Counted from the first letter of the stretch, positions 5,656 to 60,635 are shown. The stretch is 64,000 nt of DNA from Patescibacteria group bacterium (GCA_038063735.1 JBBTUN010000004.1:106646-170645); one strand, 5' to 3'. Translations and numbers: made by a program. Notes: generated by a model not told the origin, from the sequence alone.

Positions 5656-5664
5656 AATTAACTT

Positions 5665-38787: not shown

Positions 38788-40489
38788 ACTCTGTTCGTTT
38801 CAACATATTAAATATTTTGTCCGATGAGTTAGTTCCAAAAGAACAATAATCCAACAAAAACTTAGCTATCTTACTGTTTTTAGTCGCACTTCTACTCCTT
38901 AGTATTGTCTCTAGACAATGGTTAAGCTCTGATTTATTCTTTGCGACAGATACACCACTGTTTTCTAAGAACTTCTTGGGAAAAATCATTGAAGGAAAGT
39001 AGATAACAGGTTTGCCCATCAAAAGTGCGTATAAAGTTGCTGTGGTTGTCTGCCCGATGATTACATCTGAGCCTCCCAGTAAGTTTACCAAATCCGAATT
39101 TTCATCAAAGTATATTTTTAGTTTTTCTTTTTTTGCAATCGCCTTTAAGACTTTATCGGAAGTTCTCGGATGCAATCGAACAATAATGTTCGCGTTAATT
39201 GCAGTATCTCTCAAAGAGGCTAAAATGATTTTAAAAGTTTTCTCGGTGTTATTGAATTTGTACTGAGAAGAAAAGCCTTCAGCTTGGTGGTGTAAATACA
39301 ATATTTCTAGTCTAGATGACTTGAAGTCTCTTTTTGAATTAAATTTATTTAATTTATCAAAATTTGGCCAACCGCCAACGATTAATCTTTTTGCATCAAT
39401 CCCAAATTTCCCACACAACTTTTTAGTACTTTCTCCCCATACTTCAAAAATGTTAGCCACTAAGTATTTACTATCAATCCCGACATGAAGTCCGTGCTGA
39501 ATCTCAAGAGTTGGAATTTTATTTTTGTTAGCTTCTCTCAGCATTATTTGATTTGTCGAGTCGTTTGTAACTGCCACAACTTGTTTAACATTTATATTGC
39601 GCAGAAGATAGGAAAAAAAAGATTTGTAATTTTCAAGATTAAGCGCATCAACAATTACAACTGAAATTAATTTATCACTAAAAATTGGGTACAAGTCAAA
39701 ATTTTTGTACTTATAGATAGATCTAGATATTGACCGAAGCAAAATGAAATACCTAAACTTTAAAACCAAGTTAAAAATTAATGAAGATAAGTTAACTTCG
39801 CCGGTGTAGTTTAAAAACCTAATGCCACTTTTTACTAGCTCTGGTTCAGCCTGGCCAACTCTGCCTACAACTAAAAGAGAATTTTTCTCAAACTTTTTAA
39901 TTAGTGGAAAGCACCCTAGGATGTGGTAATGGTGAGCCAAAAAAAGCGTAACATCTTCATCTCCAAACACCGCAAAACTATTAAGTGATTTAATTTTTGG
40001 AGGCTTAAAAAGTTGTATCAGATGCTTGATTAAATTGATTTCTACAGTTTTGTTTTTTTTTACTCTTATTCCTTTTTCTTTACAAAGAAACTCGATAAGT
40101 GGTGATAGTGTTTCATGATCAAAGACAAAAAAACTTTTTACACCTTTCTTTTCTCTATCTATATAAACTGTAGTAGGCCGTTCTTTATCTAGTAGTGAAT
40201 TCAAACTTTCAAGTAAATATAAACGTTTGGCAAAAAAATGATGCAGACTGAGATTCAGAGAGCGCAAAACGTCACTTTCTTCACTAACCCAATCTCTGGC
40301 CCAGATCTCTGAGTGTTTACTGATAACATCTTTATTCGCTCGGTCGTAAAAGTCTTCAAAGTTCAAATATCTGATATTTTTATTTATCAAGTAAGTCTTG
40401 ACATCGTCATTTAGCGGTACTAGATGGTTTTTGTCATCGAAGTTAGACAAACTACTAATGTTTGACACGAAGGTAATGTTTTTTGCCAT
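38774..40489 (-). CDS. Soluble GT-B-like protein of the capsule-biosynthesis / TagF / sialyltransferase superfamily. Candidate CMP-nonulosonate transferase.
   Basis: 571 aa. An LHPR 'HP' motif followed by DVIIGQTTTATLYALLMGKPVIYFP. Co-operonic with the CMP-sugar synthetase. Confidence 0.35.
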   Translation of the reverse strand: MAKNITFVSNISSLSNFDDKNHLVPLNDDVKTYLINKNIRYLNFEDFYDRANKDVISKHSEIWARDWVSEESDVLRSLNLSLHHFFAKRLYLLESLNSLLDKERPTTVYIDREKKGVKSFFVFDHETLSPLIEFLCKEKGIRVKKNKTVEINLIKHLIQLFKPPKIKSLNSFAVFGDEDVTLFLAHHYHILGCFPLIKKFEKNSLLVVGRVGQAEPELVKSGIRFLNYTGEVNLSSLIFNLVLKFRYFILLRSISRSIYKYKNFDLYPIFSDKLISVVIVDALNLENYKSFFSYLLRNINVKQVVAVTNDSTNQIMLREANKNKIPTLEIQHGLHVGIDSKYLVANIFEVWGESTKKLCGKFGIDAKRLIVGGWPNFDKLNKFNSKRDFKSSRLEILYLHHQAEGFSSQYKFNNTEKTFKIILASLRDTAINANIIVRLHPRTSDKVLKAIAKKEKLKIYFDENSDLVNLLGGSDVIIGQTTTATLYALLMGKPVIYFPSMIFPKKFLENSGVSVAKNKSELNHCLETILRSRSATKNSKIAKFLLDYCSFGTNSSDKIFNMLKRTEYELN

Positions 40490-40490: not shown

Positions 40491-41918
40491 TTACTGAAGC
40501 GAGCTTAAAAGGCCTGGGGAGTTGAAAGCCATTTTTTTTAAATTATTAATATCGCTCTTCTTAATATTTCTATTCATTTCAAGTATTCCTTCTTCAATTC
40601 CGATTTCTGTGTGGAAATCCAAAACTCTGTTGATTTTAGAAAAAGAAACTCTATAATTTCTTTTGTCTCCGACTGAATTTAAATTTTTAATAACGACATC
40701 TTTAGATAGTTTTTTTATCGTTTCGGCAATCTCGTTGATCGTGAAATTTGAATTATTTGAGCCTACATTAAAAATCTCGCCACTAATACTTTTAATCGGA
40801 GATTGCAAAACCATTTCTATTGCTCTTGCTGCATCCCTTACATGCAAGAACGGTCGCCATTGGTCACCTCCGTTAACCGGAATACCCTTACCTTGGCTAG
40901 CCAGTAATGTAAAAAAATTAACTACGAGATCAAACCTCGGCCTATGTGACCAACCAAACAAAGTTGAAAGTCTCAAAACGGTTGGTGAAAAATTCTGATC
41001 ACTTAATCTCAAGAGTTCAATTTCACTTTCAATCTTTGATTGAGCATACAGAGATACAGGTATAAGAGGAGATGTCTCTGCTAACAAATTTTCTGATTCG
41101 CTTGCTCCGTATACAGAACAGGTTGAAGTGAAAACTAACCTATTGATTTGAAACTTTTTACAAGTATGAGCAAGATTGATTGTGGCAAGGGTGTTGTCCG
41201 ATATAGCCAAAGTCGGATTAGCACTTGAAGCTTCATCTCCCACTATTGCTGCTAAGTGAACCACCGCATCAACATCCTTTGCAGCTTCTACCACTTCGTC
41301 AATATGCAAAACATCCCCCACAACTAAGTCAAATCCCTTATGCGCCCAAATTTTACTTAACGATTCCTTCCCAAAGCTTAAATTGTCCAAAACCTTAACT
41401 TTATACCCACTGTTTAAAAGCTTGCGAACTAAAACTGATCCTAAGTAGCCGGCACCACCAGTAACAAGAATTTTTTCAACTCGTTTTTCTGTCGATTTAG
41501 CCAAGGTAGTAAGATAGCTGAGTTTTCCGTCTGTATCAATTATTGCTACATCGATTGGTCTTCGGTGCTTATCGAGGATAGGCACCTGAATTATTCCGCC
41601 CGTTGTAGATAGCTTTGAAAGTGAAAGTGCTTTAATCCTTCTATCATTATCGCCCTTGTTTGCTGTAATTGGCCTCCTATTATATATATCCTTTATTTTG
41701 TCACTGTCGGCATGCCCCTCAAGAAGAGACCTTCTTAAGTCCCCAAAAGAAAGGACTCCCTCAAGCTTACCGCTGGATGAACACACAAGGACAATCTTTG
41801 CCCCCGCCTCGTCCATCATTCTTGCAGCTTTCTTAATAGTAGTAGATTCTTTTAGTAATATCTTCTTAAAATTTTTAATCACGTTATTTTTGAATTTTAA
41901 TAGGCACTCCAAACGCAA
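40491..41918 (-). CDS. CBS-domain pair fused to an NAD-dependent sugar epimerase/dehydratase (SDR)
   Basis: The N-terminal roughly 130 aa have CBS-like features (VLSFGDLRR, VAIIDTD). The C-terminal part has KILVTGGAGYLGS and YAQSK. Confidence 0.65.
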   Translation of the reverse strand: MRLECLLKFKNNVIKNFKKILLKESTTIKKAARMMDEAGAKIVLVCSSSGKLEGVLSFGDLRRSLLEGHADSDKIKDIYNRRPITANKGDNDRRIKALSLSKLSTTGGIIQVPILDKHRRPIDVAIIDTDGKLSYLTTLAKSTEKRVEKILVTGGAGYLGSVLVRKLLNSGYKVKVLDNLSFGKESLSKIWAHKGFDLVVGDVLHIDEVVEAAKDVDAVVHLAAIVGDEASSANPTLAISDNTLATINLAHTCKKFQINRLVFTSTCSVYGASESENLLAETSPLIPVSLYAQSKIESEIELLRLSDQNFSPTVLRLSTLFGWSHRPRFDLVVNFFTLLASQGKGIPVNGGDQWRPFLHVRDAARAIEMVLQSPIKSISGEIFNVGSNNSNFTINEIAETIKKLSKDVVIKNLNSVGDKRNYRVSFSKINRVLDFHTEIGIEEGILEMNRNIKKSDINNLKKMAFNSPGLLSSLQ

Positions 41919-42279
41919 TTTTTCCGGCTGGTATGTTTTTGTTTACAAAACTGTGGGCGCCAATTATTGCGTTTTTGCCAATAGTTATGTTGGGCATAAT
42001 CGTGGTGTGGCTTCCTATTCTAGCACCACTCTCAATTTTTACCGGCCCTCTTTTATTATCTATTGTAGACTCGGAGTATATAGAACAATGCGAACCAATC
42101 TGTACATCTTCTCCTATAAAAACTCCGTGTTTTGCATTGATATATGTGAAAGCGCCTATATCTGCACCACTATCAATTGTTAAATTCTTTCTGTTTTGGC
42201 ACATCCACTGCCATTTAGTCATACCTAATCTATTAAACTTGGGTTGTTTCCAGTGAACAAAACGCTGTGAGTTCTTCAT
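41884..42279 (-). CDS. Hexapeptide-repeat (left-handed beta-helix) sugar N-acetyltransferase (PglD/LegH/NeuD-like)
   Basis: Repeated [LIV]G-x4 hexapeptides: IGEDVQIGSHCSI…IGSHTTI…IGKNAIIGAHSFV. Confidence 0.7.
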   Translation of the reverse strand: MKNSQRFVHWKQPKFNRLGMTKWQWMCQNRKNLTIDSGADIGAFTYINAKHGVFIGEDVQIGSHCSIYSESTIDNKRGPVKIESGARIGSHTTIMPNITIGKNAIIGAHSFVNKNIPAGKIAFGVPIKIQK

Positions 42280-43418
42280 CTTCTTGCTCGTTCAACAGCT
42301 TTCTCAAGCGACAGGCAAACTTTTTCAATATCCGATTGCTTCATGTCTGTATAAAGCGGTAATGCTAAGCTGGATGCGCTTGTCGACTCACTGACAGGAA
42401 ATCTACCAGCAGAAGCATTAATTTTTTTCCAATAAGGTTGCAAATGAATTGATGGAAGATACGGCTTTGACTGGATTTTATTCTTTTTTAGTATAGCCAT
42501 TGTCTTGTTCCTATCAATGCTCTTGTCTAATAATACAATAAATGCCTGCCAGCTTCTGCTATAAACAGTATCGTCATCACGTAAAGTTTTAATTAAATTA
42601 TTCTTTTTAAGAATTCTCTTGTAGTAAAGTGCAGCCTTTTTTCTTGATGAAAGTATATATTTGATTTTTTTCATCTGCATCAAACCTACAGCAGCGCTCA
42701 TTTCATCCATTCTGTAGTTGAAGCCAAGTTTATCATGAGAAAGCCATTGTCCCGAATCACCCCTTCCCTGATTAATCAGGCTCTTCAAAAGAGTATAGTC
42801 CTCTTTGTTATTAGTCACAATCATACCCCCTTCTCCTGTTGTAATTTGTTTATTCGGGTAAAAAGCAAAAACTGCCAAATTGCCAAAATTGCCAACTTTT
42901 TTCCCTTTATATGTTGCTCCCAACGATTCACATGCATCCTCCACAATTTTCAATTTGTATTTTTCTGCAAGCTTTTTTATTTTTGCATAATTAATAGGGT
43001 AGCCAAATATATGAACGGGCAATATGGCCTTTGTGCTTTTTGTAATAGCCGACTCGATATTTTCGGGGTTAATATTCAAAGTTTCAGGATCTATATCGAC
43101 AAAGACTGGTTTAGCTTGGCAATATAAAATTGCATTTGCAGAAGAAACAAACGAAAATGGAGATGTAATAACTTCATCGCCAGGCTTAAGCCCTAAGGTA
43201 ACAACTGAGGCATGAAGGCCGGCTGTTCCCGAAGAGACAGCAATGGCATATTTTGTTCCGACAAAATCGGCAATACTTTTTTCAAATGCCTCCAGGTATT
43301 TTCCAAGTCCAAGAATTCCGGATCGTAAAACTTTCTGTACAGCTTTCTCCTCGTCAGTTGTAATAAATGGTGGACTCAATGGAATTAACTCTTGTGGTAA
43401 TTTATTAATTCTTTTCAT
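42276..43418 (-). CDS. DegT/DnrJ/EryC1/StrS family PLP-dependent sugar aminotransferase (LegC/PglE-like)
   Basis: 380 aa. AVSSGTAGLH motif and the family-typical length and composition. Confidence 0.8.
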   Translation of the reverse strand: MKRINKLPQELIPLSPPFITTDEEKAVQKVLRSGILGLGKYLEAFEKSIADFVGTKYAIAVSSGTAGLHASVVTLGLKPGDEVITSPFSFVSSANAILYCQAKPVFVDIDPETLNINPENIESAITKSTKAILPVHIFGYPINYAKIKKLAEKYKLKIVEDACESLGATYKGKKVGNFGNLAVFAFYPNKQITTGEGGMIVTNNKEDYTLLKSLINQGRGDSGQWLSHDKLGFNYRMDEMSAAVGLMQMKKIKYILSSRKKAALYYKRILKKNNLIKTLRDDDTVYSRSWQAFIVLLDKSIDRNKTMAILKKNKIQSKPYLPSIHLQPYWKKINASAGRFPVSESTSASSLALPLYTDMKQSDIEKVCLSLEKAVERARR

Positions 43419-44553
43419 AAAAATGTTTTTGAATTAAATTAAGATGTAAATTAATTTTTTCCAGTATTTTTGCGATTTTCTTACCGCTATGCCCATTGCC
43501 GTAAATATTGTCCTTTTTAAACCTTTTTTTGCCCTTGATTATTTTACTTATAGCAGTCTCTATTCTTAAAGCATCGTAGTCAATATCCACCACGTTACTG
43601 TTTCTTTCTCTGCCTTCCTGTCTAGTACCGACATTAACAACTGGCAACCCAAAGGATGAAGCTTCAATTATTCCGCTGGATGAGTTACCAACAAGAACAT
43701 TCGCAATTCTCAGAGTGTTAGCATAAATTCTTCTGTCCATATTTCTTAAGACTAGGTAGTCTTTTTTCGAACTGAATTTTTCAAGCTCATTGGCAATAGC
43801 GTTAGAACCAGGATCTCCATTAGGATAAATCAAAATTCTCGTGCACTTGATGTTTGATACAGCTTTTAATGTTTCTCTTATCTCTCGCCTTGCTGTAGTC
43901 GGAGATGTTGAAACAGGGTGTTGTAACAGAATTATTAAAGTGTTACCAATTTTGACACCCAACTTCTTAGAGAGTTCACCCTTGCTAATTACAGGTTCGC
44001 TCATAAGTTCATCAAGCCCGGGTGCGCCCACTAAAAATACATTTTTTGGATTTTCTCCCATCCTTAAAATCCTATTCATACTTTTTTTTGTCGCGGGAAA
44101 GTGGAAATGGGCAAGTTTTGTAATAGCGTGTCTTATAGACTCATCAAACCCGGCTTTAGAAAGATCCCCACCGTGGATATGAGCAATTGGGATTGGAATA
44201 AAAGCTGCAGAAACTGCGCAAGCAAGCGCTTCACTCCTGTCGCCACTTAAAACGACTAAATCTGGCTTAAGCCTTAAAAGAATTTTGGTAAATTCTAGTA
44301 TCCCGTTGCCTATCTCGAGACTAACCTTCCCCTCAATCTCTTCGTCTATAACAATGTTTACCTTAGCATCTATTGAAAAACCATCTCTATTAATCAGCTC
44401 GATTGTGGAGCCATATTTCTTAAGAAGATGAACTCCGGAGACAATAAGTTGTAAATCAAGACTTTTAGATTCGCTAATCGCGGTAACTACAGGCCTAAGA
44501 ATTCCATACTCAGATCTTCCGCCAGTAAAAACTGCAATACGTTTCCTTTTCAT
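43405..44553 (-). CDS. UDP-N-acetylglucosamine 2-epimerase, hydrolysing type (NeuC/LegG-like)
   Basis: IAVFTGGRSEYGILRPV N-terminus and GDRSEALACAVSAAFIPIPIAHIHGGD. Confidence 0.7.
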   Translation of the reverse strand: MKRKRIAVFTGGRSEYGILRPVVTAISESKSLDLQLIVSGVHLLKKYGSTIELINRDGFSIDAKVNIVIDEEIEGKVSLEIGNGILEFTKILLRLKPDLVVLSGDRSEALACAVSAAFIPIPIAHIHGGDLSKAGFDESIRHAITKLAHFHFPATKKSMNRILRMGENPKNVFLVGAPGLDELMSEPVISKGELSKKLGVKIGNTLIILLQHPVSTSPTTARREIRETLKAVSNIKCTRILIYPNGDPGSNAIANELEKFSSKKDYLVLRNMDRRIYANTLRIANVLVGNSSSGIIEASSFGLPVVNVGTRQEGRERNSNVVDIDYDALRIETAISKIIKGKKRFKKDNIYGNGHSGKKIAKILEKINLHLNLIQKHFYEKN

Positions 44554-45434
44554 AAGAGCCTATCGCCAATTTTAATTTTTCTTGGCTGCCACTTAGTAAC
44601 ATAAATCGCACCATCTCGGCATTTAACGATAAAACCACCCTTTTTCTTTTTTACAACCTCGCCATTTGCTCCTGGAAAGGTTTCATGCATTTTTCTTGCT
44701 TGCCATATTATTAACTTTTTTTCGCCAAACGTACAAAATGCGCCCGGATACGGCCGGGTTGTTGCTCTTATTAGCTTATCAATTCGGTCTAAACTCCAGG
44801 ACCATTTTATTTTTCCGTCCATTGGTTCTCTAGCTGGCCAATAATTACTCCTAGCCGGCTGCATAATTATTTTTATTGTTCCGTTTTCAATTTGGGGTAA
44901 AACTTTGTTAACCATTATTTTTCCAACAGCAATCATTTTTTTGTAAATACTAGCAGCGTCATCCTTAGAAGTAATCTTCCATTTCATTTGATATACAACG
45001 TCTCCGGTGTCTGCGCCTTCATCCAAATACATAAATGTCAGTCCGGAGACTTTTAATCCTTTTATTATCGACCAGGGTATTGGTGATCTACCCCGATTTT
45101 TTGGAAGAAGAGCCGGGTGAGTTCCAAGAACACCGATTGATGGTAACGTCAGTAATGTTTTTTTAACAATTTGTGAGAGGCCAAAAACCAACATCAAATC
45201 TGGTTTTAGTTTTCTTATCAAACTCACATTTTTATTTTCATTAATGTTTTTAAACCAAAAGTGCGGAATCTTATATTTTTTAGCAAGGTCAGATTGATCT
45301 CTGTAATCAGAGATGTTTTTTGAAAAATCTGGATGGACGTTGAAAACGCCAACTACATCGGCAAGTTTTTTTTCTAAAATCTCGTTCAGGCAGTACCAAG
45401 AGAACTCAATGCTGCCTATATAAACGACTCTCAT
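44550..45434 (-). CDS. Formyltransferase (Fmt-like), probable sugar N-formyltransferase
   Basis: GVLGTHPALLPKNRGRSPIPWSIIKG (HxxLLPxxRG motif). The C-terminal domain is Fmt-like. Confidence 0.7.
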   Translation of the reverse strand: MRVVYIGSIEFSWYCLNEILEKKLADVVGVFNVHPDFSKNISDYRDQSDLAKKYKIPHFWFKNINENKNVSLIRKLKPDLMLVFGLSQIVKKTLLTLPSIGVLGTHPALLPKNRGRSPIPWSIIKGLKVSGLTFMYLDEGADTGDVVYQMKWKITSKDDAASIYKKMIAVGKIMVNKVLPQIENGTIKIIMQPARSNYWPAREPMDGKIKWSWSLDRIDKLIRATTRPYPGAFCTFGEKKLIIWQARKMHETFPGANGEVVKKKKGGFIVKCRDGAIYVTKWQPRKIKIGDRLL

Positions 45435-45436
45435 AA

Positions 45437-46099
45437 TTAATCATTTCTGGCGTATAAAATTGAAAAAACTTCTGCATATTTATACCCGGATCTTAGACCT
45501 CTTTCCGAGGCAAGTATCGTTAACCCTTTTAAGGATCTGGGATGAGGGTATTCTTTTAATTCTGATTTGTAAAAACTCATAACCTCCAGCTTATTTTTAA
45601 AATTTAAAGAAATGTTCTCGAAGTAATTAAAAACCTGCTTGTTACTTTTTATTTCCGAAAAATTTGTTGTGACTGGAATCTCATAGCTAATAATCTGTTT
45701 AACTTCACTTCCATTCCATGGTCTAACAACGGAAAGAACATTACCGGTCACAATTTCATGGTCCAAATGGCAATCGAAAAGCGGTGGCGTGTAAATAACC
45801 TCGGCCCTTGTTGACTTGACTGCATTTGAAATTGTATCGGCTATCTCAAGTTGAGGATAACTGGAAAGAGAAGCTGCTTTGAACTTAGCATTAATAACTT
45901 TCCGAAATCCATAATAACTCCCAACTTTTTTTATCTCCTTTTTTTTTGCAGTTATATAACGGGCATCCCATTTCGGAGTAAAAGCGCGAGTCACAATGAG
46001 CCAGGACAAGCTATGGCCGCGAGATGAAAGTTTTGAGAGAGTTCCCCCCATTCCTATTGTCTCATCATCTGGATGAGCAGAAATTATAAGAATATTCAT
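45437..46099 (-). CDS. PIG-L/LmbE family N-acetyl-sugar deacetylase
   Basis: LIISAHPDDETIGMGGT signature. Confidence 0.7.
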   Translation of the reverse strand: MNILIISAHPDDETIGMGGTLSKLSSRGHSLSWLIVTRAFTPKWDARYITAKKKEIKKVGSYYGFRKVINAKFKAASLSSYPQLEIADTISNAVKSTRAEVIYTPPLFDCHLDHEIVTGNVLSVVRPWNGSEVKQIISYEIPVTTNFSEIKSNKQVFNYFENISLNFKNKLEVMSFYKSELKEYPHPRSLKGLTILASERGLRSGYKYAEVFSILYARND

Positions 46100-47208
46100 T
46101 CGACCATTTCTGAAGTAATTTCTTGGTCGGCGACAACAGAAGTTTTCAAATTCTTGTCCAGTAACTGTTCAAAGTCCATCGGTGATTGTCTGCCACGAGT
46201 TCTTTTAGGAATAAGCAAGTCAATAGTGACCTTGTCTCCTTCGGCCATATCATTCCTTGCCCTGACAGCTTTTCTAAAAAACTCTATATTATTTACCTCA
46301 GATGGTTGTACTTTTTTTACTCCATCGCCAAGTGCTTCGGGGTGTTTTATTTCTTTTGAAGGGGATGATTCGGCTTCTCTTATTAAATTAACCATTTCAC
46401 GAAACTCTTCTGTATTAAGAGAAGCTCTATGGTCGGGACCGTCCATTTTCTTGTCGAGTGTCATATGTTTTTCAATAGAAACCGCTCCAAGTCTGACTGC
46501 ATCTGCCGGTACAATCATGTCGTCGCCGTTATCGGAAAATCCCACCAATACACCATATTTTTGAGAAAGCTTTTCTTTAAATGTTTTAATAACATCGAGG
46601 TTTTGTTCTCGTGTAGGAGTAGGATAAGAAGATGTACAGTGGTAAACAAGGATCGTGCCTTCAAAACCATGTTCTTGTAAAAATACTAGGGATCTCTCAA
46701 CGTCTTCAAGTGTTCCACCCCCTGTTGAAAGGAACAATGGCTTAGATTTTAAATCAGGATGTTTTGCGATCTTATATAATAAAAGTCCGTTATTTAAATC
46801 CGGAGACGCAATTTTAATTACAGGTAAGTTTAATCTGGCTAATATATCTACACTTGTCAGATCGTGGGGTGTAGCATAGAAAATTATCCCCTTCTGCCAA
46901 GAATATTGCTGTAGTTGGACAAGTTGGTCTTCTGAAAGTGAAAGTTTTTTTAACATCTCGCGTTGGCTTTCGCCTTCGCCAGTGGTCTCTTTTTGGTAAT
47001 TCCCTTTGGATGCATCCTTAGTTGCAATCTCATCCGGGATAAAAATCTGAAATTTGACAGCGTCTGCGCCGACAGCTTTTGCTTGATCAATAAGTTTTCT
47101 TGCCAAATCCACTTGTCCATTGTGATTGACACCTGCTTCTGCAACGATAAAGCATGGTTGGCCAATTCCTACAGACTTATCCCCAATGCTTATATTTTGT
47201 CTTTTCAT
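46096..47208 (-). CDS. Nonulosonic acid synthase (NeuB/LegI/PseI family) with a C-terminal SAF domain
   Basis: GQPCFIVAEAGVNHNGQ and AVKFQ motifs. About 370 aa. Confidence 0.8.
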   Translation of the reverse strand: MKRQNISIGDKSVGIGQPCFIVAEAGVNHNGQVDLARKLIDQAKAVGADAVKFQIFIPDEIATKDASKGNYQKETTGEGESQREMLKKLSLSEDQLVQLQQYSWQKGIIFYATPHDLTSVDILARLNLPVIKIASPDLNNGLLLYKIAKHPDLKSKPLFLSTGGGTLEDVERSLVFLQEHGFEGTILVYHCTSSYPTPTREQNLDVIKTFKEKLSQKYGVLVGFSDNGDDMIVPADAVRLGAVSIEKHMTLDKKMDGPDHRASLNTEEFREMVNLIREAESSPSKEIKHPEALGDGVKKVQPSEVNNIEFFRKAVRARNDMAEGDKVTIDLLIPKRTRGRQSPMDFEQLLDKNLKTSVVADQEITSEMVE

Positions 47209-47246
47209 ATCGACGACATTGTAATTAATTGTTTAGTCAAATACAA

Positions 47247-47954
47247 TCAACCCTTTTTATATGCAAATAAAGCTCTGGCTATGTTTAGGTCTTCCATATC
47301 ATCTACGTCAATTGATTCTAACTTACTAGTAAGAATGTAACCAGACCGATTTTTAGCAAAAGGATACCTAAGCGCTTTTTTAATAAAATCCTTCTTATAA
47401 ACGTACAAAACGCCATCTATTTCATAATTCTTATCAAAATCTTGTCCACGGATTTTTGAAAAATCATTTGCATAGATAAACTCCAATAGTTCTTTGTTTA
47501 TTTTAAGAATCCAGTTAGAAGGGAATTTAGTTTGTTTTACAGAAAATATTGCGTCAAGCTTATCCCAATTCCCCCAAAGCTTTTTAATGCCAGAGATGAT
47601 GGTAGTTGCTGATCTAAAAGGGGAAGTGGGTTGTAACAAGACTACCGTGTCGAATCGCACCCCTTCCTCTTCCAGTGCCTCAACAGAATGTTTCAAAACG
47701 GACAAGGTCGAAGATTTGTCTTTAGCATGTTGGTTAGGTCTTTTTATAATCTTTGCTTCATACCTGGTAGCAGTTTGAGCAATTTCTGCATCATCTGTAG
47801 AAACATAAATCCGACTAGGGAAGTACTTAGAGATTTTGGCAGATAAAATAGTGTATGCAATTAACGGTTTACCATCGATATCTACGACATTTTTTTTAGG
47901 AATTCTCTTCGATCCACCCCGCGCAGGAATAATTGCAATGGCACGGTGTTTCAT
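47247..47954 (-). CDS. CMP-nonulosonic acid synthetase (acylneuraminate cytidylyltransferase, NeuA/LegF family)
   Basis: AIIPARGGSKRIPKKN N-terminal signature. Confidence 0.8.
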   Translation of the reverse strand: MKHRAIAIIPARGGSKRIPKKNVVDIDGKPLIAYTILSAKISKYFPSRIYVSTDDAEIAQTATRYEAKIIKRPNQHAKDKSSTLSVLKHSVEALEEEGVRFDTVVLLQPTSPFRSATTIISGIKKLWGNWDKLDAIFSVKQTKFPSNWILKINKELLEFIYANDFSKIRGQDFDKNYEIDGVLYVYKKDFIKKALRYPFAKNRSGYILTSKLESIDVDDMEDLNIARALFAYKKG

Positions 47955-47960
47955 AAGTAA

Positions 47961-49244
47961 TTATTCTTCAATATCTTTGCTCTTCAATATTCTAGGGATG
48001 GGAAGAGGAATTATAAAATCACCTCGGAAACCATTTTTTTTAATTTTAGGAGCCAACTCATCTGCAATATGCCATGATAAAAGAAGTGCATAATCCGGTT
48101 GGTCGCTATAAAGCCTATCTTCATCAAGAACGGGAATTACAGTACCAGGGACGTACTTACCAATCTTATGTGAACCTTTTATTTCTAAAACACAATCCAA
48201 AATACCATCATCAATTCCAACGTAATTTATTAGTGTACTGGCTCGTGACGGGGCCCCGATTCCATAAATAACCTTATTTTGTATTTTTAATTTTTCCAAA
48301 AGGGACATGATCTTAAGTTTTGATAAAGTCACTTCTTTTTGGAATCTAATTAAATTTGCTTTATTAGTAACCGCAGCTTTCTCTTTCTTAAGCATATCCC
48401 CAACACTCTTCCCAATTTTTCGAGTGTCTTTCTTGGCAGCGTATACTCTGATTGAGCCACCGTGAGACGGAATGTTTTTTGCATGAAATACCTCAAGCCC
48501 ATGCATAGCAAGGAGATACTTTAAACTGTGGAGTGAATAATATCTCATATGTTCATGATAAATAGTATCATATTGTAAAGTTTTAATTAACGAATAAAGA
48601 TAATGAGACTCAGATATAAATACACCGCCTGGTTTTATGAGTCGAATAATATTTTTCAAAGCTTCATGAATATTTTCCATATGTGCAAAAACATTTGTGG
48701 CAGTGACGACTGTCGCTTTTCCTCTAGTTTTGATAATTTTATCAACAACTTTTGCAGTAAAATAATCTATTATAGTATCAATCCCTTTTTTAACCGCGAG
48801 TTTCCCAATTTCTTCGGGTGTTACCCCGAGAACTTTATGCTCATTAACAAAGTTAGAAAGAAGATTTCCATCATTTGATCCAATGTCTACAATCAAATCC
48901 TCACTTTTAAGTGATAGTAATTTTGAAGATTCGCGATATAATTCCTCAAAATTTTCTCTTAAAACCCTCGTGGTGCTACTCGTGTAAGGGTATTCTGGAG
49001 GGAATAAAATTTTTGGATCAACGATAAGTCCAAGCTGGACTAGATGACATTTTCGACAGTACAACCATTGAGCAGGGTAGCTGGGTTCCTCAGACGGTCT
49101 AGTGCCAATCTTTGGCATCGTGTTGACAGGGGGCAAGTATCCTAGAAAAAGGATAGAGGATAGTTTAGGGTTTTCACATATTTGACATTTTTTTACCACC
49201 ACGCTGGAACCGGTACCAAAAGCAAAGGAAGAATTCTTAGTCAT
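47961..49244 (-). CDS. Putative sugar C-methyltransferase (Zn-ribbon Methyltransf_13 N-domain + SAM MTase, TylCIII/NovU-like)
   Basis: CQIC…CRKC zinc ribbon, a DIGSNDGNLL SAM motif and a C-terminal Methyltransf_14-like region. Confidence 0.55.
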   Translation of the reverse strand: MTKNSSFAFGTGSSVVVKKCQICENPKLSSILFLGYLPPVNTMPKIGTRPSEEPSYPAQWLYCRKCHLVQLGLIVDPKILFPPEYPYTSSTTRVLRENFEELYRESSKLLSLKSEDLIVDIGSNDGNLLSNFVNEHKVLGVTPEEIGKLAVKKGIDTIIDYFTAKVVDKIIKTRGKATVVTATNVFAHMENIHEALKNIIRLIKPGGVFISESHYLYSLIKTLQYDTIYHEHMRYYSLHSLKYLLAMHGLEVFHAKNIPSHGGSIRVYAAKKDTRKIGKSVGDMLKKEKAAVTNKANLIRFQKEVTLSKLKIMSLLEKLKIQNKVIYGIGAPSRASTLINYVGIDDGILDCVLEIKGSHKIGKYVPGTVIPVLDEDRLYSDQPDYALLLSWHIADELAPKIKKNGFRGDFIIPLPIPRILKSKDIEE

Positions 49245-49271: not shown

Positions 49272-49322
49272 ATTTATTCTAAATTATATTCACTTCGCTT
49301 ATGTAATTTATTCTAAATTATA
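49272..49322. repeat. 17-bp perfect direct repeat ATTTATTCTAAATTATA, two copies at 49272-49288 and 49306-49322
   Basis: Seen directly in the sequence. The second copy overlaps the stop codon of 49313-50302. Confidence 0.8.
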
Positions 49323-50302
49323 AGGGCAGGGGGTTTTAAATGAGCGTTATTATTATACCAATCGGCAGTAATTTGTAAACCTTCGTAAAAACTAAATTTC
49401 GGCTGATAGCCAAGTTTTCTAATCTTCGAAATATCTGGAAGACGTCGATTAGTACCGCCTTTTTGTATCTTTCCGGGAATTATTTTTATTTTTTGTCCAA
49501 AAAAATCCGCCACCCCCTGTGCCACCTCATTAATAGCAATTTCCTGATCCGTGCCGATGTTATATATCTCTAAATGTTTGCCATGCTTAATTATAGTTTC
49601 CAGCCCTTTCACAAAATCATCAATGTACACAAATGCTCTCGTCTCCTTGCCGGAACCCTGAATATGAAATTTTACAAGTCCATGATCCTTTTTAGATAAC
49701 TCTCTCATTCTGATAACGAATTGTGGGATTACATGTTCCCACCCCATCTCTGGGCCGAATACATTATGGGGACGGAAAATCATTGCACGTCTAAAATATT
49801 TTCTACCATAATTCGCGACAAAAAGTTCACTTATTATTTTCCCTCCCCCGTAAGAATAGCGGGGGTTTAACAAATCAGGAACAATTAAACGAACATTTTC
49901 CGGCGTCGGCACAACTGGGGGAGTTTGATAAACTTCAGAACTTGAAGCGAAATAAATTTCATCTACACCGTTCCATAAACATGAATCAATTACATTAATA
50001 ATTCCACGCGTGGACACATCTAATACAACTTCTGGCATCGAATAAAAAAACTTAGTGCCGTTTACAGCGGCAAGATGAATTACTCCATCAACACCCTTGC
50101 ATGCGATATTGACAATTTTTGGATCCCTAACGTCGCCGGAAATAAATTCAAAATCATTTACGATATCCTTTAAGCTCTCTAAATTACCTCTCGAATTGTT
50201 ATCTAAAACTCTGGTAGTATAGCCGTTTCTTACCATAGCCCTCGTGACATTCCTACCGATAAACCCGGTGCCTCCAGTCACTAAATATTTTTTTGCAAAC
50301 AT
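49313..50302 (-). CDS. NAD-dependent epimerase/dehydratase (SDR). First gene of the minus-strand nonulosonic-acid operon.
   Basis: VTGGTGFIGRNV motif and YSYGGGK. Confidence 0.7.
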   Translation of the reverse strand: MFAKKYLVTGGTGFIGRNVTRAMVRNGYTTRVLDNNSRGNLESLKDIVNDFEFISGDVRDPKIVNIACKGVDGVIHLAAVNGTKFFYSMPEVVLDVSTRGIINVIDSCLWNGVDEIYFASSSEVYQTPPVVPTPENVRLIVPDLLNPRYSYGGGKIISELFVANYGRKYFRRAMIFRPHNVFGPEMGWEHVIPQFVIRMRELSKKDHGLVKFHIQGSGKETRAFVYIDDFVKGLETIIKHGKHLEIYNIGTDQEIAINEVAQGVADFFGQKIKIIPGKIQKGGTNRRLPDISKIRKLGYQPKFSFYEGLQITADWYNNNAHLKPPALII

Positions 50303-50323: not shown

Positions 50324-51241
50324 ATGTATATTCTATGCGATATGTCAAGGCAAAAAATACTCGTTTACGGAATTACAGGGATGACAGGCACAAGATTTGC
50401 CGAACTGGTCAGAGATAAATTTAAAATTATTGGCCCTCCTCGTTTCATTGTCGACCTCACAAATAAGAAACAAGTGAAAAAAAATATCCGAGATGTTAGT
50501 CCAGATCAGATACTTTATTTAGCAGGAATCACTAAAGTAGATGAGGCACAGCAAAATCCTAAAAACGCATATTTACTTAATTCGGAAGCTGTAAAATATG
50601 CTGCGAAAGAGTCAGCTCTCCTAAACATCCCTTTTCATTATGTTTCTACTGATGCTGTGTTTGACGGCAAACTAAAAAACAGACTGTATAAAGAAAATGA
50701 TAAAACTAATCCGATTTCCATTTATGGTAAAAGTAAATTAGCTGGGGAAAAAGTTGTATTAGAATTTTCAAATAAGAATTCTGTCATCAGGACAATAATG
50801 ATATATTCTCCAAATTATCCGCATAAAAAAGATTTTGCCAAGTTTGCTTACGAATCACTAAAATACAAAAAACCAATAACTGGAATAATCGATCAATTTA
50901 TAAATCCAACCTATGTGGACGATTTGGTAAATGGCATCTGCAAAATATTGCAAAAAAGAGAAAGTGGCATTTACCATGTTGCAGCAACAGACAGTACCAC
51001 TAACTTTGAATTTCTAAAAAAAATAGAGAAAACTTTCAAATTCAATAAAAATCTTATTACAGAAACAACATTTAATGAATTTTTCAAAGATAAAACCGCG
51101 CCTAGACAGCAATACAGTAGACTTTCAACCGAAAAATTTAGAAAAAAATTTGGAAACGGAATCCTTCACAAAATAGATCAAGGAATCAATGAATTTAAAA
51201 AACAGATGTCAAAACTAGAAACGCAACCTATTGACGTTTAG
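50324..51241 (+). CDS. RmlD-like NAD(P)H sugar reductase (dTDP-4-dehydrorhamnose reductase family). The start is possibly the ATG at 50342.
   Basis: ILVYGITGMTG motif, a VSTDAVFDG signature and YGKSK. Confidence 0.6.
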   Translation: MYILCDMSRQKILVYGITGMTGTRFAELVRDKFKIIGPPRFIVDLTNKKQVKKNIRDVSPDQILYLAGITKVDEAQQNPKNAYLLNSEAVKYAAKESALLNIPFHYVSTDAVFDGKLKNRLYKENDKTNPISIYGKSKLAGEKVVLEFSNKNSVIRTIMIYSPNYPHKKDFAKFAYESLKYKKPITGIIDQFINPTYVDDLVNGICKILQKRESGIYHVAATDSTTNFEFLKKIEKTFKFNKNLITETTFNEFFKDKTAPRQQYSRLSTEKFRKKFGNGILHKIDQGINEFKKQMSKLETQPIDV

Positions 51242-51994
51242 TCTCACTAAGATCCCGTATAAATACCATCGTACATACTTGGGCAGCCACTTCAATAGTT
51301 TAAATTTAGATTTTCCCACTGTTCTATCTCTCCAAACTGTTGGCACATCTCCGATTTTAAAACCGGCATGATACGCTTTTATTATTATCTCGCAAGAGTA
51401 TTCCCAGCCACCTGTTGACTCGATTTTTATCTTGTCGAAAATATTTCTTTTATACATCTTAAAACCGTTTGATATATCTGTTGTTGGAATTCCCAGTAGA
51501 AAAGGACTAAGCTGGCCAGCAAATCTGGAAAGCAAAGTTTTTAAAAAACCTCCACCAATCTTTTTACCACCTTTTCCATATCTGGATGCACATACAATAT
51601 CAAAGCCATCCTCCATTTTCGTGTACATCTTATTCACTGTTTTCGGTTCATCAGCTAAATCCGCAGGCATGATCACAACCACTTTCCCTTTTGCATTCTT
51701 AATTCCGGTTTTAACTGCGTTTATCACCCCTTTTCCAAAATTGTTTTTCACCAAAATTACGCTTTTAAATTTGCGTTGAAGTTTTCTTGCATATGGAATA
51801 GTATTATCTTCATCAAAATCATAAACGATTAAGATTTCATGAGGGTTTATTACATCTTTTTCTAAAGCAATTATTTGTGTTGTAATGTTCTCACCTTCGT
51901 TATAAACAGGCAAGACAATACTTAAATCAAAATGCTTATTCGAAGAAAAGCTTTGCTTATTCACTTCCAGCCAAATACTTTCTAAGATAAACAA
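51215..51994 (-). CDS. GT2 polyprenyl-phosphate sugar synthase (DPM1-like)
   Basis: LSIVLPVYNEGENI…VIMPADLAD motifs. Confidence 0.7.
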   Translation of the reverse strand: MFILESIWLEVNKQSFSSNKHFDLSIVLPVYNEGENITTQIIALEKDVINPHEILIVYDFDEDNTIPYARKLQRKFKSVILVKNNFGKGVINAVKTGIKNAKGKVVVIMPADLADEPKTVNKMYTKMEDGFDIVCASRYGKGGKKIGGGFLKTLLSRFAGQLSPFLLGIPTTDISNGFKMYKRNIFDKIKIESTGGWEYSCEIIIKAYHAGFKIGDVPTVWRDRTVGKSKFKLLKWLPKYVRWYLYGILVRLNVNRLRF

Positions 51995-53333
51995 GATAAA
52001 TCAAAACGTGGATAGCAGCCAGTAGTGTCAGAAGCCAGTAATGCAAGAGATTTTCAGGAAATGCGACAAAACCACCCCTGACGGGAAATCCGTGAGTTAA
52101 GACTGGGCTTAAGCCAAAAAATATCAGTATTAAATACAGCCTAATATTACTCTTATTAGTGTTGATTATGGCCAAACATAAAGCGGCTAATATCGTGATG
52201 AATAAGTGGTTCGCGTGCACGCCGGTTCTCAAGATAAAATAACTCCAACTTATCATCAAGCTCGCCTGCAACAAACTGCCAACGTCTTTCTTTTTTATTA
52301 AGAAACTCTTCAAGATTGCTATATCAACTAACAGAAAAATCACTCCAGTAATTAATGAAAAAATATGGAGATTATTTTTAATAACCATTACGTACGTCTC
52401 TGGGTAAAATGGTATAAGGACACCATATTGAATAAGATACACGAAATTTAAAGACCCTATTTCAAAATACCAAACGCCATGACTGAAAGCTTTTCTTAAG
52501 GATTCAGCTAAAGAAAATAAAGATAAATGATTTACCAAAAAAACAATAATTAACAAGACAAATACTGACGTAAAGGCCACCAAGAATTTGAATATTGGCA
52601 TGTCAATTTTATATTCGCTCGCAGAATGCCCTAGGCTATTAATCCACGGATGAATGCGAGAGAATACATACTTTCGAGGACTGCTGTGTATTTTTGCTCG
52701 CTCATGTAAACTTAAAGAATAATACCGATGACTTTCAGTCTTCGGAAGTTTATACCGCTGCCCATTTTTTATTATGAAATAAAACAGAAACACTGGTAGC
52801 ATCATAATAGCAATCCATTTCACCAATACCGCCAAAGCAAAACAAATTCCGGAAGGAAGATACTTCCGTCGAGCGAATAAGGCCAAAGAGAAAATTACAT
52901 ATGGCGCAAAGGTAATATCTAAAGTGGTGAATGCCTGCGAAATAATGGCAAAATACAATCCCCCCAAATAAAGTCCAGAGACAACAGCAATGCTTGTCCA
53001 AATTGATTTTCGCCTCAAAATAGTAGATAAGTAAATTAAAGAAACCCATGTTGCTAAATAATAGACCAGCAACATTAGTTTTATCCCTATCATCCAGCTG
53101 ACGCCAAAAACTGCAGCTGCTTTCATTGCAAGCCAGAGATTAATGAAAGCGAAAGGCGGGTAATCAGTAGTCCAATAATTGTAGTTGGCATTAATACTGT
53201 TACTAATAATAGTGTCACTAACACTGGTATTGATAATAGAATAAGCATTCAGGGGACCCCATCTATCAATATGAGCTGTCCATTCCAGCCAAACGTCCAT
53301 ATTCCCCAGTACCATAATTTGGGAAAAAGACAA
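51957..53333 (-). CDS. Polytopic membrane protein (GT-C-like). The N-terminus is probably incomplete or frameshifted; see the 53266-53448 ORF.
   Basis: At least 11 TM segments. The annotated start is TTG, and the nearest ATG is at 53315. An upstream out-of-frame ORF encodes a TM helix. Confidence 0.4.
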   Translation of the reverse strand: MSFSQIMVLGNMDVWLEWTAHIDRWGPLNAYSIINTSVSDTIISNSINANYNYWTTDYPPFAFINLWLAMKAAAVFGVSWMIGIKLMLLVYYLATWVSLIYLSTILRRKSIWTSIAVVSGLYLGGLYFAIISQAFTTLDITFAPYVIFSLALFARRKYLPSGICFALAVLVKWIAIMMLPVFLFYFIIKNGQRYKLPKTESHRYYSLSLHERAKIHSSPRKYVFSRIHPWINSLGHSASEYKIDMPIFKFLVAFTSVFVLLIIVFLVNHLSLFSLAESLRKAFSHGVWYFEIGSLNFVYLIQYGVLIPFYPETYVMVIKNNLHIFSLITGVIFLLVDIAILKSFLIKKKDVGSLLQASLMISWSYFILRTGVHANHLFITILAALCLAIINTNKSNIRLYLILIFFGLSPVLTHGFPVRGGFVAFPENLLHYWLLTLLAAIHVLIYLVYLRKYLAGSE

Positions 53334-53584
53334 TTATGGGCAAAGACAAAAATATGAGAGCAAAAACAATTAATAATCTCTTAATTTGAACCATAATAGA
53401 TGAAAATAGTTTGAGTATTACATTGTTTGAAGAAAAAAATATTTTCAAATCTCTTGTAGCAAGTTACTTTACATCCATGCAATATCAATACCAAATTCAC
53501 TTCCTCAAACAAACTCTCTTGATTTTTTAATACCACCTATTTGGTATTATTTCTCTCATTAAAACCGATAAAGTAATAGATAAC

Positions 53585-54319
53585 TTAACTTTTTTTCATC
53601 CCAAAACCAACCACCCACGCACCAAAAAACCGAGCAAAAGGAGTTTTTCCTAAAATGCCGTCTATAACATTGTAACATTTAAGCAAAGGTTTAGTTTTCC
53701 CCGCGATATAACAAAAGGCTATACCTGATTTTATTTGAATTTTTGTATCAAACCCTGCTTTTGAAAAAGTTTCCCCAATTTCTTTTGCTGTCAACAACCT
53801 TTCGTTAGATGTTATTCCTATATTCGAATGCAAAGGGGATGATTTAGAACGATAAATCCAAAATGCCGGGTTAAAATAATGAGGATCGTAAGAAAAGAAT
53901 GTTCCTCTAGGTCTTAAAATACGATGACCCTCTTTTGCAACTAGTTCGAAATTGGGAAAATGGTGTAATATACCAGAATAACAGGCAACGTCTACAGAAG
54001 AAGATTTTATTCTTAAATTTTCTATGTCTCCAACCATAAAATCAATTTTGGGAAAGTCCTTTTGTGCTCTTTTGATGCAACCACGCGAAATATCAACCCC
54101 GATAATCTTGCAGTTAGGATATGCTTGATATAAGTGGCTGGTGAACGCCCCGCTTCCGCAACCCAAATCGTAAATAATTTTATTTTTTCGTGGTGGGATA
54201 AGATCAGTCATCCACGATATCATTTCTAAATATCCGTCTTTATCAAAAACGTCATATCCACCTTGCTTGTCAAAGTGGTCAAAAAATTTTATTTCTGCCT
54301 TTTTATTTTGCAATATCAT
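53585..54319 (-). CDS. Class I SAM-dependent methyltransferase
   Basis: IIYDLGCGSGAFT motif I. Confidence 0.65.
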   Translation of the reverse strand: MILQNKKAEIKFFDHFDKQGGYDVFDKDGYLEMISWMTDLIPPRKNKIIYDLGCGSGAFTSHLYQAYPNCKIIGVDISRGCIKRAQKDFPKIDFMVGDIENLRIKSSSVDVACYSGILHHFPNFELVAKEGHRILRPRGTFFSYDPHYFNPAFWIYRSKSSPLHSNIGITSNERLLTAKEIGETFSKAGFDTKIQIKSGIAFCYIAGKTKPLLKCYNVIDGILGKTPFARFFGAWVVGFGMKKS

Positions 54320-54377
54320 TAGGTAATAATTCGTTAATTTTACATATTTTCTGACTCTGGATGATAGAGATCAGCTT

Positions 54378-54386
54378 TGTTATCAT
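54378..54386 (+). promoter_or_regulatory. Candidate extended -10 promoter element TGtTATCAT upstream of 54411
   Basis: TGnTATcAT lies about 25 nt upstream of the ATG, in a divergent intergenic region. Confidence 0.2.
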
Positions 54387-54410
54387 ATTGGGCACAACTT
54401 TCAAAGGACA

Positions 54411-56090: not shown

Positions 56091-56091
56091 A

Positions 56092-59023: not shown

Positions 59024-59064
59024 ACGCTATATATTAGCTGCCAAACAAAAACAAGTAAATATTA

Positions 59065-59997: not shown

Positions 59998-60635
59998 GAA
60001 GACAAGTGCCCAATGTTCACCATTCTGACATAGGATCTATCGGCAACACCATTAGCACTTTTAGGAAGCTTCACCCACTTAACATCTCCGTTTACAACTG
60101 TCTCCATAAGAGGTATTTTCCTCACAGTTTTAAATCCGCAACGTTTATAAAGATTCACTGCTCTTACATTATCATTAAATGTTATTAAATAGAGCCTGTC
60201 TATATTTAAATTTTTAAAACCCCAACTGACTAAGGTGGTAACACATGTAGTCATCAGCCCAGGAATATTTTTTAAACCTCTCACGACATTATCTAACTCG
60301 CATGAGTTATCCCTTCGTCTGTACCTATAAAAACCTAGATGCCCATAAAACCTACCGTACTCATCCTCAATTGCGAACAAAATCCTGTCCTGATTATCAA
60401 TGACTAAATCCTTTAACCATTTTTTTGTCCTTTTGACAGTAACTTTAAACGTGTCACCAAACCAGAAAGCCTCCCTCCTTCTCCACAAAGCTATATTCTT
60501 TATAAGAATTTTATTTTCAACATCTGCATTGTTTATTACGCGAAGAAAAATTATTATTGAGTGAATTTTGCCAACTTTAATAACAAATTTAGGCCTCTTC
60601 TTCAGAGCGTTTATTTTACTTGAATAATGAGACAT
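59994..60635 (-). CDS. GNAT-family N-acetyltransferase-like protein
   Basis: 213 aa. The C-terminal NVRAVNLYKRCGFK is a GNAT motif A/B-like region. Confidence 0.5.
   Translation of the reverse strand: MSHYSSKINALKKRPKFVIKVGKIHSIIIFLRVINNADVENKILIKNIALWRRREAFWFGDTFKVTVKRTKKWLKDLVIDNQDRILFAIEDEYGRFYGHLGFYRYRRRDNSCELDNVVRGLKNIPGLMTTCVTTLVSWGFKNLNIDRLYLITFNDNVRAVNLYKRCGFKTVRKIPLMETVVNGDVKWVKLPKSANGVADRSYVRMVNIGHLSS

Follow-up and report, generated by a model that had tools for sequence, protein, structure and literature searches.

Two described systems lie closest to the locus considered here. The S-layer N-glycan of the archaeon Halorubrum sp. PV6 is capped by 5-N-formyl-legionaminic acid (PMC6137143, Zaretsky et al. 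2018; glycan from Kandiba et al. 2012), and its leg cluster includes a co-transcribed ~953-bp gene for a predicted formyltransferase (~317 aa) between legG and neuD/legI; a deacetylase is not discussed in that paper, and HrrPV6_1052 is left undescribed (PMC6137143). The legionaminic acid (Leg)-like cluster of Ca. Kuenenia stuttgartiensis contains both a deacetylase and a formyltransferase, and its CMP-activated nonulosonates (NulOs) carry one free amine and one N-formyl group, so that editing precedes transfer to the glycan (SugarBase preprint, bioRxiv 10.64898/2026.04.20.719630). The present analysis concerns a 64,000-nucleotide stretch of a Patescibacteria (candidate phyla radiation, CPR) metagenome-assembled genome (JBBTUN010000004.1:106646-170645; hereafter the window) in which five adjoining minus-strand open reading frames (ORFs), with outer ends at 44550 and 49244, encode an Fmt-like formyltransferase, a PIG-L family protein, a NeuB-family synthase, a CMP-transferase and a Zn-ribbon C-methyltransferase (C-MTase). 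The whole window is one glycan island, rich in GT2 and GT4 glycosyltransferase genes and with about nine paralogs of the GT-C type.

In our judgement the locus is probably best explained as two separable sugar modules joined in one minus-strand transcription unit. The first would be a legionaminic-type nonulosonate pathway running from 47954 down to ~38774, and the second an independent cassette for a C-methyl-branched sugar running from 56090 down to 47961 (Table 1). Between 50302 and 37279 the genes lie on one strand with intergenic gaps of -35 to +68 bp, and the region physically resembles a single transcription unit. The initial annotation had reported a formyltransferase, a PIG-L deacetylase and a Zn-ribbon C-MTase within a NulO operon, and the Pfam matches of all five ORFs, among them Formyl_trans_N/C, PIG-L and Methyltransf_13/14, indeed exceed the gathering cutoffs. 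Its further suggestion of a novel decorated sugar was overstated, as both the N-formyl Leg-type sugars and the gene pair are known from earlier work.

The PIG-L and Fmt-like genes travel together. In three Parcubacteria loci (L001, L002 and L069) the order CMP-transferase, NeuB, PIG-L, Fmt-like, NeuC, DegT, hexapeptide-repeat protein, short-chain dehydrogenase/reductase (SDR) and ~580-aa protein is the same as in the window, with genes 50-72% identical and the formyltransferase 60% identical to their window counterparts. A metagenome scan with a 12-sequence alignment of the clade returned at least 532 Fmt-like relatives; 80 loci kept from it, together with L001 and L003, make up a set of 82 Fmt-clade loci, which contain PIG-L in 64 cases, NeuC in 56 and NeuB in 51. 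Where at least 3 kb of flank was available on both sides (24 loci), PIG-L and NeuC were each present in 21, NeuB in 20, a CMP-transferase in 16 and a homolog of Hex131, the left-handed beta-helix (LbH) acetyltransferase of the window, in 11, and 21 of the 24 are NulO clusters (~85% of complete loci). NeuC adjoins the Fmt-like gene in 21 of these 24 loci, and PIG-L does so in most related loci. The pair is widespread and the cassette common in metagenomes, and the gene neighborhoods support the view that the two genes are conserved and intrinsic components of a nonulosonate pathway. The PIG-L protein of the window has the motifs A8-H-P-D-D-E13 and H111-L-D-H114, which supply the Zn ligands and the general base; HPDDE (H9-E13) and D113-H114 are invariant in 62 of 62 family members, so the enzyme is catalytically competent in appearance.

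The identity of the formyltransferase requires closer consideration. It is similar to Fmt in length, shares ~27% identity and the two-domain fold with it, and is as close to Fmt as to ArnA both in PDB sequence matches (112.8 and 112.0 bits, a tie) and in structure: the AlphaFold2 model (pLDDT 96.1) finds the ArnA N-domain as its best fold match (5j63_B, E 3.4e-31, TM 0.85), with TM values of 0.83-0.86 for ArnA and Fmt alike. Since fold cannot separate the two families, membership is settled by motifs, cutoffs and context. This even likeness, and the name that NCBI and JGI give to many homologs, could be taken to mean that the gene is the genuine methionyl-tRNA formyltransferase of the cell, present in the cluster by chance. 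The score against TIGR00460 (fmt) is 156.2 bits, however, under the equivalog cutoff of 201.5, and the catalytic Asn is absent. The basic N-domain loop of Fmt, 'PDRPAGRG(K)', which we take to read the acceptor stem of initiator tRNA (2fmt complex), is replaced by 'HPDFSKNISDY' with a 3-residue gap. Clade members also occur in archaea (Nitrososphaerota and a Halorussus haloarchaeal plasmid), in which the initiator Met is not formylated. Because of the score, the lost tRNA loop, the archaeal homologs and the NulO context, we conclude that the protein is no genuine Met-tRNA Fmt, in keeping with the initial annotation; a chance association of the true fmt is scarcely credible.

Clade members nonetheless carry the fmt name in public databases. 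RefSeq lists WP_276282380.1 (L149 10001-10945, on the Halorussus caseinilyticus plasmid NZ_CP119810.1) as methionyl-tRNA formyltransferase, with the GO term for fMet-tRNA formation despite the archaeal host, and many bacterial and Thaumarchaeota members are likewise so named by NCBI and JGI. This clade-wide naming looks like a systematic mis-annotation, and correcting it to a nonulosonate-tailoring enzyme paired with PIG-L would improve hundreds of environmental genome annotations.

The protein is not an ArnA equivalog either, scoring 176.4 bits against the ArnA N-terminal model, for which the cutoff is 777, and 175 against PRK06988 'formyltransferase' (NCBIfam). Formyl_trans_N and Formyl_trans_C are both present and the fold matches, as in the N-domain of ArnA, which acts on an amino sugar nucleotide; ArnA has an Asn-His-Asp triad and a fused decarboxylase domain, whereas the window enzyme has Gly-His-Asp and no decarboxylase domain. 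Alignment to 1fmt and 3r8x places 'LGTH' opposite 'INVH' of Fmt and 'FNLH' of ArnA, with Gly104 in the position of the Asn, and the triad (N108/H110/D146 in E. coli Fmt) is incomplete by the standard of either family, His106 and Asp142 being retained. PseJ-type membership was considered and rejected, the match amounting to only 38 bits over one domain (residues 79-202); PseJ (PDB 6ci2/6ci4), named as a formyltransferase of a pseudaminic-acid-type pathway, is a short, single-domain protein of another clade, and PIG-L does not accompany it.

The substitution is a property of the clade. G-x-H-P takes the place of N-x-H in all 120 of the best protein homologs and in 83 of 83 Fmt-like ORFs (identity 36% or more) from the fetched loci, and the Asn is kept in five more distant formyltransferase paralogs of sugar clusters. 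A triad residue conserved in Fmt, ArnA and nearby canonical sugar formyltransferases, and Gly in every member of the clade, would also be expected if the protein were not a conventional N10-formyl-tetrahydrofolate transferase and instead used another donor or acyl group, or served as a hydrolase or scaffold, leaving the product unformylated. We consider this unlikely: the clade shows no variation at His106, at Asp142 or in the LLP-x-x-RG motif of the folate site, the model superposes on folate-analogue-bound ArnA (TM 0.85), and organisms with such clusters show formylated NulOs. The universal change from Asn to Gly is a ready question for formyltransferase enzymology.

In Leg-type pathways the acyl group at N5 comes with the starting N-acetylglucosamine (GlcNAc) nucleotide, as its 2-acetamido group, and the N7 acyl group is added onto the 4-amino group after transamination. 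As N5 derives its acyl group from GlcNAc, a 5-N-formyl product requires de-N-acetylation and then formylation, that is, a PIG-L enzyme and a formyltransferase. An exchange of acetyl for formyl is thus the most economical reading of the pair, which probably yields an N-formyl legionaminic-type sugar. PIG-L would strip the GlcNAc-derived N-acetyl group from the position that becomes N5 of the nonulosonate, and the ArnA/Fmt-like enzyme would then formylate the amine so exposed, with N10-formyl-tetrahydrofolate as the presumed donor. A CMP-activated 5-formamido-7-acetamido Leg-type sugar is the product predicted by this scheme, and it would pass to the adjacent 571-aa putative glycosyltransferase; the substrates, the order of the steps and the formylated nitrogen are as we infer them. 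The pair may act on the NDP-sugar, the free hexose or the nonulosonate, the close adjacency of NeuC being only suggestive in this respect. The swap proposed in the initial annotation gains from the conservation of the pair in NulO loci and from the Halorubrum and Kuenenia precedents, and by the same precedents the idea is not new.

Assignment of the formyl group to N5 and of an acetyl group to N7 is favored by Hex131: its gene and that of the aminotransferase overlap, in the window as in the closest relatives, and the protein is 72% identical in L001/L069. Hex131 matches the C-terminal half of NeuD/PglB/VioB (73.6 bits), and its best PDB match is an N-acetyltransferase (7s3u, 7.5e-12), with O-acetyltransferases next; it is a candidate N-acetyltransferase of the 4-amino group, N- and O-acetylation being inseparable by sequence. 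The Halorubrum PV6 operon is like the window in combining a legB/C/G/I/F set with a formyltransferase and a NeuD-like LbH acetyltransferase, and differs in that it is archaeal and its sugar sits on an N-linked S-layer glycan, whereas the window belongs to a CPR bacterium with a CBS-fused SDR. Haloarchaeal clusters are tied to the Fmt-like clade by Halorussus plasmid L149, in which an Fmt-like gene with G-M-H-P adjoins neuC, PIG-L and neuB; extension of this link to Halorubrum itself is an inference.

Several points weigh against this scheme. The residue that serves as catalytic Asn in all studied formyltransferases is Gly here, and the chemistry may differ; our literature search found no published enzymology of the PIG-L/Fmt-like pair; Hex131 has no PglD-type N-domain and could be an O-acetyltransferase; and among Fmt/PIG-L loci in which an aminotransferase is seen, roughly half have no Hex131-like acetyltransferase nearby. 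The Kuenenia CMP-sugar, with one free amine and one formyl group, fits a scheme of deacetylation at N5 and formylation at N7 better than a swap at N5. In such a scheme the Fmt-like enzyme would take over from a LegH acetyltransferase and formylate the new 4-amino group, the later N7, PIG-L would leave a free, positively charged N5 amine, and the 131-aa LbH protein would O-acetylate or act elsewhere. The Kuenenia cluster resembles the window, as far as its description allows the likeness, in having a deacetylase and a formyltransferase among leg/neu genes and modification at the nucleotide-sugar level; it differs in that no legH is described inside it and in its +14 Da variants, read as O-methyl. 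The number of loci lacking Hex131 and the undecided N- or O-assignment of this protein, which fits O-acetyltransferases nearly as well, make this a serious alternative, although a less probable one. An LbH gene overlapping the aminotransferase gene is an arrangement of the LegC-LegH type, conserved in the relatives, and in Halorubrum, whose cluster pairs a formyltransferase with a NeuD-like LbH gene, the sugar is formylated at N5 and not at N7. On the N5-formyl reading that we prefer, the pair would be a simple route to exchange the N5 acyl group of sialic-acid-like sugars, a group that determines charge, phage binding and host recognition.

The remaining genes of the module are consistent with a Leg-type pathway. 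Its core, a hydrolysing 2-epimerase, a NeuB-family synthase and a CMP-transferase, is complete, and LegB, LegC and LegH roles are plausible for the SDR, DegT and Hex131 proteins; Leg-type is used here to include epimers, as stereochemistry is not readable from sequence. The DegT aminotransferase scores 313.6 against PseC and 306.7 against the LegC family (cutoff 420), in both cases under the cutoff. The CBS-fused SDR, the presumed 4,6-dehydratase in the LegB role, carries its CBS pair at the N-terminus and scores 104.5 against LegB TIGR04180 (cutoff 475); marine Fmt/PIG-L loci such as L075, L078, L089 and L093 repeatedly contain homologs of it (40-45% identity), and the SDR in the same position of L001 is non-orthologous and CapD/PseB-like. 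The C-terminal region of the 571-aa protein is homologous to that of its 580-aa L001 counterpart (29% over 174 aa, 1e-13). The module is a sign that ultra-small CPR bacteria devote resources to capping with nonulosonates; we found no open-access literature on nonulosonates or legionaminic acid in Patescibacteria/CPR.

The C-MTase at the upstream end of the five ORFs was likened in the initial annotation to TylC3-type sugar C-methyltransferases, and this likeness extends over the full length of the protein. PDB matches include MtmC (4rv9, 3e-57, residues 10-420), TcaB9 (3ndi, 1.2e-47) and 5t64 (1.3e-43). The Zn ribbon reads C20-x2-C23 ... C63-x2-C66, the motifs 'YPYT', 'FAH' and 'YHEH' align with MtmC, and Y-x-E-H is found in all 65 C-MTase locus homologs. 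We take the active-site residues of TcaB9 to be Tyr76, His181, Tyr222, Glu224 and His225. With three-domain full-length homology and the active-site residues of the TylC3/TcaB9 type both in place, the sequence identifies the protein as a genuine TylC3/TcaB9/MtmC homolog. It shares with the C-3-methyltransferases TylC3, TcaB9, MtmC and KijD1 the three-domain architecture, the 4-Cys Zn site, Y-H-E-H and F-A-H, and differs from the solved enzymes in its modest identity to them and in belonging to a large environmental clade (CPR, DPANN, Proteobacteria, SAR11) with fixed SDR and GT2 partners. Its homologs number more than 8000, many of them 66-96% identical, with Woesearchaeota and Elusimicrobia among the hosts.

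These partners define a cassette of its own. L004 (C-MTase 87% identical), L005 (79%) and the Woesearchaeota locus L006 (68%) have the same block of GT2, RmlD-like reductase (divergent or adjacent), SDR of ~328 aa and C-MTase, with the NulO genes rearranged in L004 and L005 and missing in L006. The RmlD-like reductase is 53-75% identical and keeps its divergent orientation in L004, L005 and L007-L009, and GT-C genes accompany the cassette; in L008 the C-MTase is followed by a homolog (52% identity) of the GT-C at 37279-38787. A genome scan added 62 C-MTase loci, and the neighbors were counted in 20 loci (C-MTase at least 53% identical, at least 1.2 kb upstream). All 20 contain an ortholog of SDR329, the 329-aa SDR of the window, and a GT2 homolog, the latter within 5.5 kb of the C-MTase in every case, and SDR329 lies directly upstream in 12. 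The RmlD-like reductase is present in 8, a DegT aminotransferase in 10 and one or the other in 16; such a fourth enzyme, reductase or aminotransferase, is expected for a free 4-keto intermediate. NeuB occurs in 2 of the 20 and PIG-L in none. The hosts are CPR, Gammaproteobacteria metagenome-assembled genomes, Bacteroidota, Elusimicrobiota, Planctomycetia, SAR11 and Prochlorococcus.

In four of the C-MTase loci (L011, L014, L020 and L023, including SAR11 single-cell genomes) a DegT aminotransferase joined by a canonical Asn formyltransferase replaces the RmlD-like reductase. This Arn-like arrangement implies, at the level of gene content, a C-methyl, 4-formamido sugar on polyprenyl phosphate.

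The proposed cassette pathway would begin with SDR329 making an NDP-4-keto sugar, which the TylC3-like enzyme would C-methylate, probably next to the keto group. The RmlD-like enzyme would reduce C-4, the DPMS/ArnC-like GT2 would load the sugar onto polyprenyl phosphate, and a GT-C enzyme would transfer it outside the membrane. The best PDB matches of the GT2 are all polyprenyl-phosphate sugar synthases (DPMS 5mlz, 6e-22; GtrB 5ekp, 8e-16; ArnC 9hwj, 1.7e-10), and the succession of a keto-sugar SDR, an ArnC-like GT2 acting on polyprenyl phosphate and then a GT-C follows the logic of the Arn pathway (ArnA/ArnB/ArnC/ArnT). As in the proposed Coxiella virenose pathway (PMC3539893), the sugar would enter a cell-surface glycan and not an antibiotic. 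We see an even chance that the GT2/reductase/SDR/C-MTase cassette represents an undescribed polyprenyl-phosphate-linked C-methyl sugar pathway in CPR, DPANN archaea, SAR11 and Prochlorococcus. A literature search found no published work on this C-MTase clade or on TylC3-type enzymes in polyprenyl or lipopolysaccharide contexts; the cassette, tightly conserved across CPR, DPANN and abundant marine bacteria, is uncharacterised.

The separation of the two modules has its own difficulties. By NCBIfam, PDB matches and its SSSEVY motif, SDR329 may act as a 4,6-dehydratase, a decarboxylase or an epimerase. Its closest PDB matches are the GDP-sugar 4-epimerase 8rdg (motif SSSTVY), RmlB-like 2hun and UXS1, and the nearest of them, 8rdg, is a promiscuous enzyme (PMC12171764). 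S-[ST]-S-E-V-Y is found in 20 of 21 SDR329 orthologs, the window protein having SSSEVY. The Glu of such motifs is typical of keto-forming GMD, UXS and RmlB-type enzymes. In addition, the C-MTase stop is only 6 bp from the CMP-transferase start on the same strand, and C-MTase cassettes adjoin other NulO genes in L004 and L005. The Leg pathway, moreover, passes via an NDP-4-keto-6-deoxy intermediate, which is of the substrate class of TylC3-type enzymes. These facts would suit one pathway using all three tailoring enzymes, in which the C-MTase methylates the NulO 4-keto intermediate to give an N-formyl, C-methyl-branched nonulosonate. The distribution of the genes makes this very unlikely. The C-MTase is found in 0 of the 82 Fmt/PIG-L loci, and the syntenic Parcubacteria operon lacks it: in L001 two ABC-transporter genes occupy the place of the block from PMT559 to the C-MTase (56090-47961), the swap site lying between a conserved PMT_2 gene and the CMP-transferase. 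The C-MTase is always accompanied by its own SDR and GT2, also in NeuB-free Woesearchaeota, Gammaproteobacteria, Bacteroidota, SAR11 and Prochlorococcus loci, and the sister loci that swap the reductase for an aminotransferase, with or without the canonical formyltransferase, follow an Arn-like hexose/pentose logic ending in a polyprenyl-phosphate GT2. With no C-MTase in Fmt/PIG-L loci and the cassette occurring without NulO genes in many phyla, the C-methylated nonulosonate of the initial annotation is unsupported, and there is very little likelihood that the adjacent TylC3-like enzyme gives rise to a nonulosonate with a C-methyl branch, a class of sugar that has never been described.

Between 37 and 54.5 kb, a scan for promoters and terminators gave 51 promoter-like sites, against 59.6 in shuffled sequence, and 17 terminator-like sites, against 11.3. 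The region's strongest sigma-70-like match is TTTACA-16-TATAAT with TG (11/12) at 49379-49352 on the minus strand; it falls within the 3'-terminal part of the SDR329 gene, and the C-MTase start follows ~110 bp downstream. It was not accepted as evidence of a separate C-MTase promoter, since overall site counts do not exceed those of the shuffles.

Table 1. Genes of the two proposed modules and of the end of the transcription unit, in order of position in the window
Predicted product	Coordinates	Strand	Length (aa)	Matches and remarks
GT-C (PMT_2) membrane glycosyltransferase	37279-38787	-		PMT_2 1.3e-12; end of the transcription unit
Putative CMP-NulO glycosyltransferase, GT-B-like C-terminal half	38774-40489	-	571	Weak Capsule_synth (20.1 bits, cutoff 20), Glyphos_transf
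CBS pair fused to extended SDR	40491-41918	-		CBS and Epimerase/GDP_Man_Dehyd domains
LbH acetyltransferase (Hex131)	41884-42279	-	131	Hexapep 9.6e-16
DegT-family (LegC/PseC-like) sugar aminotransferase	42276-43418	-		PF01041 2.8e-117
NeuC/LegG-type hydrolysing NDP-HexNAc 2-epimerase	43405-44553	-		TIGR03568 414.6 bits (cutoff 235.9)
Fmt/ArnA-like two-domain formyltransferase, NulO-specific clade	44550-45434	-	294	Formyl_trans_N 2.2e-25, Formyl_trans_C 3.2e-20; Gly104 for catalytic Asn
PIG-L/LmbE-family predicted metal-dependent de-N-acetylase	45437-46099	-	220	PIG-L PF02585 1.2e-19, 71.6 bits (cutoff 28.2)
NeuB-family nonulosonate synthase (phosphoenolpyruvate condensation)	46096-47208	-		NeuB PF03102 5.7e-72; TIGR03569 NeuB 326.6 and TIGR03586 PseI 197.3, both under equivalog cutoffs
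CMP-nonulosonate synthetase (cytidylyltransferase; CMP-transferase)	47247-47954	-		CTP_transf_3 PF02348 1.3e-21; 62% identical to syntenic L001 gene
Zn-ribbon S-adenosylmethionine (SAM)-dependent sugar C-MTase (TylC3/TcaB9/MtmC family)	47961-49244	-	427	Methyltransf_13 5.8e-12, Methyltransf_23 6.1e-17, Methyltransf_14 3.7e-39
SDR329, presumed NDP-4-keto-sugar generator	49313-50302	-	329	Constant C-MTase partner
RmlD-like NDP-4-keto-sugar reductase	50324-51241	+	305	RmlD_sub_bind 2.1e-57
Small GT2, resembling DPMS/GtrB/ArnC	51215-51994	-	259	Glycos_transf_2 6.3e-25
Membrane protein	51957-53333	-	458	Weak PMT_2; 67% identical to L004 gene
SAM methyltransferase	53585-54319	-		57% identical to L005 gene, same arrangement
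GT-C PMT_2 protein (PMT559)	54411-56090	+		50% identical to L005 gene, same arrangement

Other sugar genes surround the two modules. A second, single-domain formyltransferase at 32882-33658 (minus strand) keeps the Asn in a canonical 'INLHPAPLPEYRG' motif, and its neighbors are a WecB-like 2-epimerase, a Gfo/Idh/MocA oxidoreductase and a UDP-sugar dehydrogenase (31879-32913, 33732-34712 and 34709-35980), a neighborhood that suggests, from its gene content, a separate sugar of the formamido-uronic-acid type. A Gfo/Idh/MocA gene likewise accompanies the gene of a 'formyltransferase family protein' on Halorussus plasmid L149 (11069-12783). The GT-C (PMT_2) paralogs of the window, about nine in number (680-8812, 37279-38787 and 51957-57768), are joined by several small DPMS/ArnC-like GT2 genes, and this abundance would imply that the CPR bacterium relies widely on polyprenyl-phosphate sugars as donors. 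Homologs of RmlD (19385-20257, plus strand) and RmlC (20254-20952, minus strand) also occur, and no RmlA or RmlB homologs were seen among the scanned window ORFs of at least 150 aa. Finally, 57722-63581 is syntenic with L001 1-5983, encoding a thiamine-pyrophosphate-dependent enzyme, DegT, GNAT, GT2 (on the opposite strand), DegT and PMT_2 proteins, which hints at a third conserved amino-sugar module.

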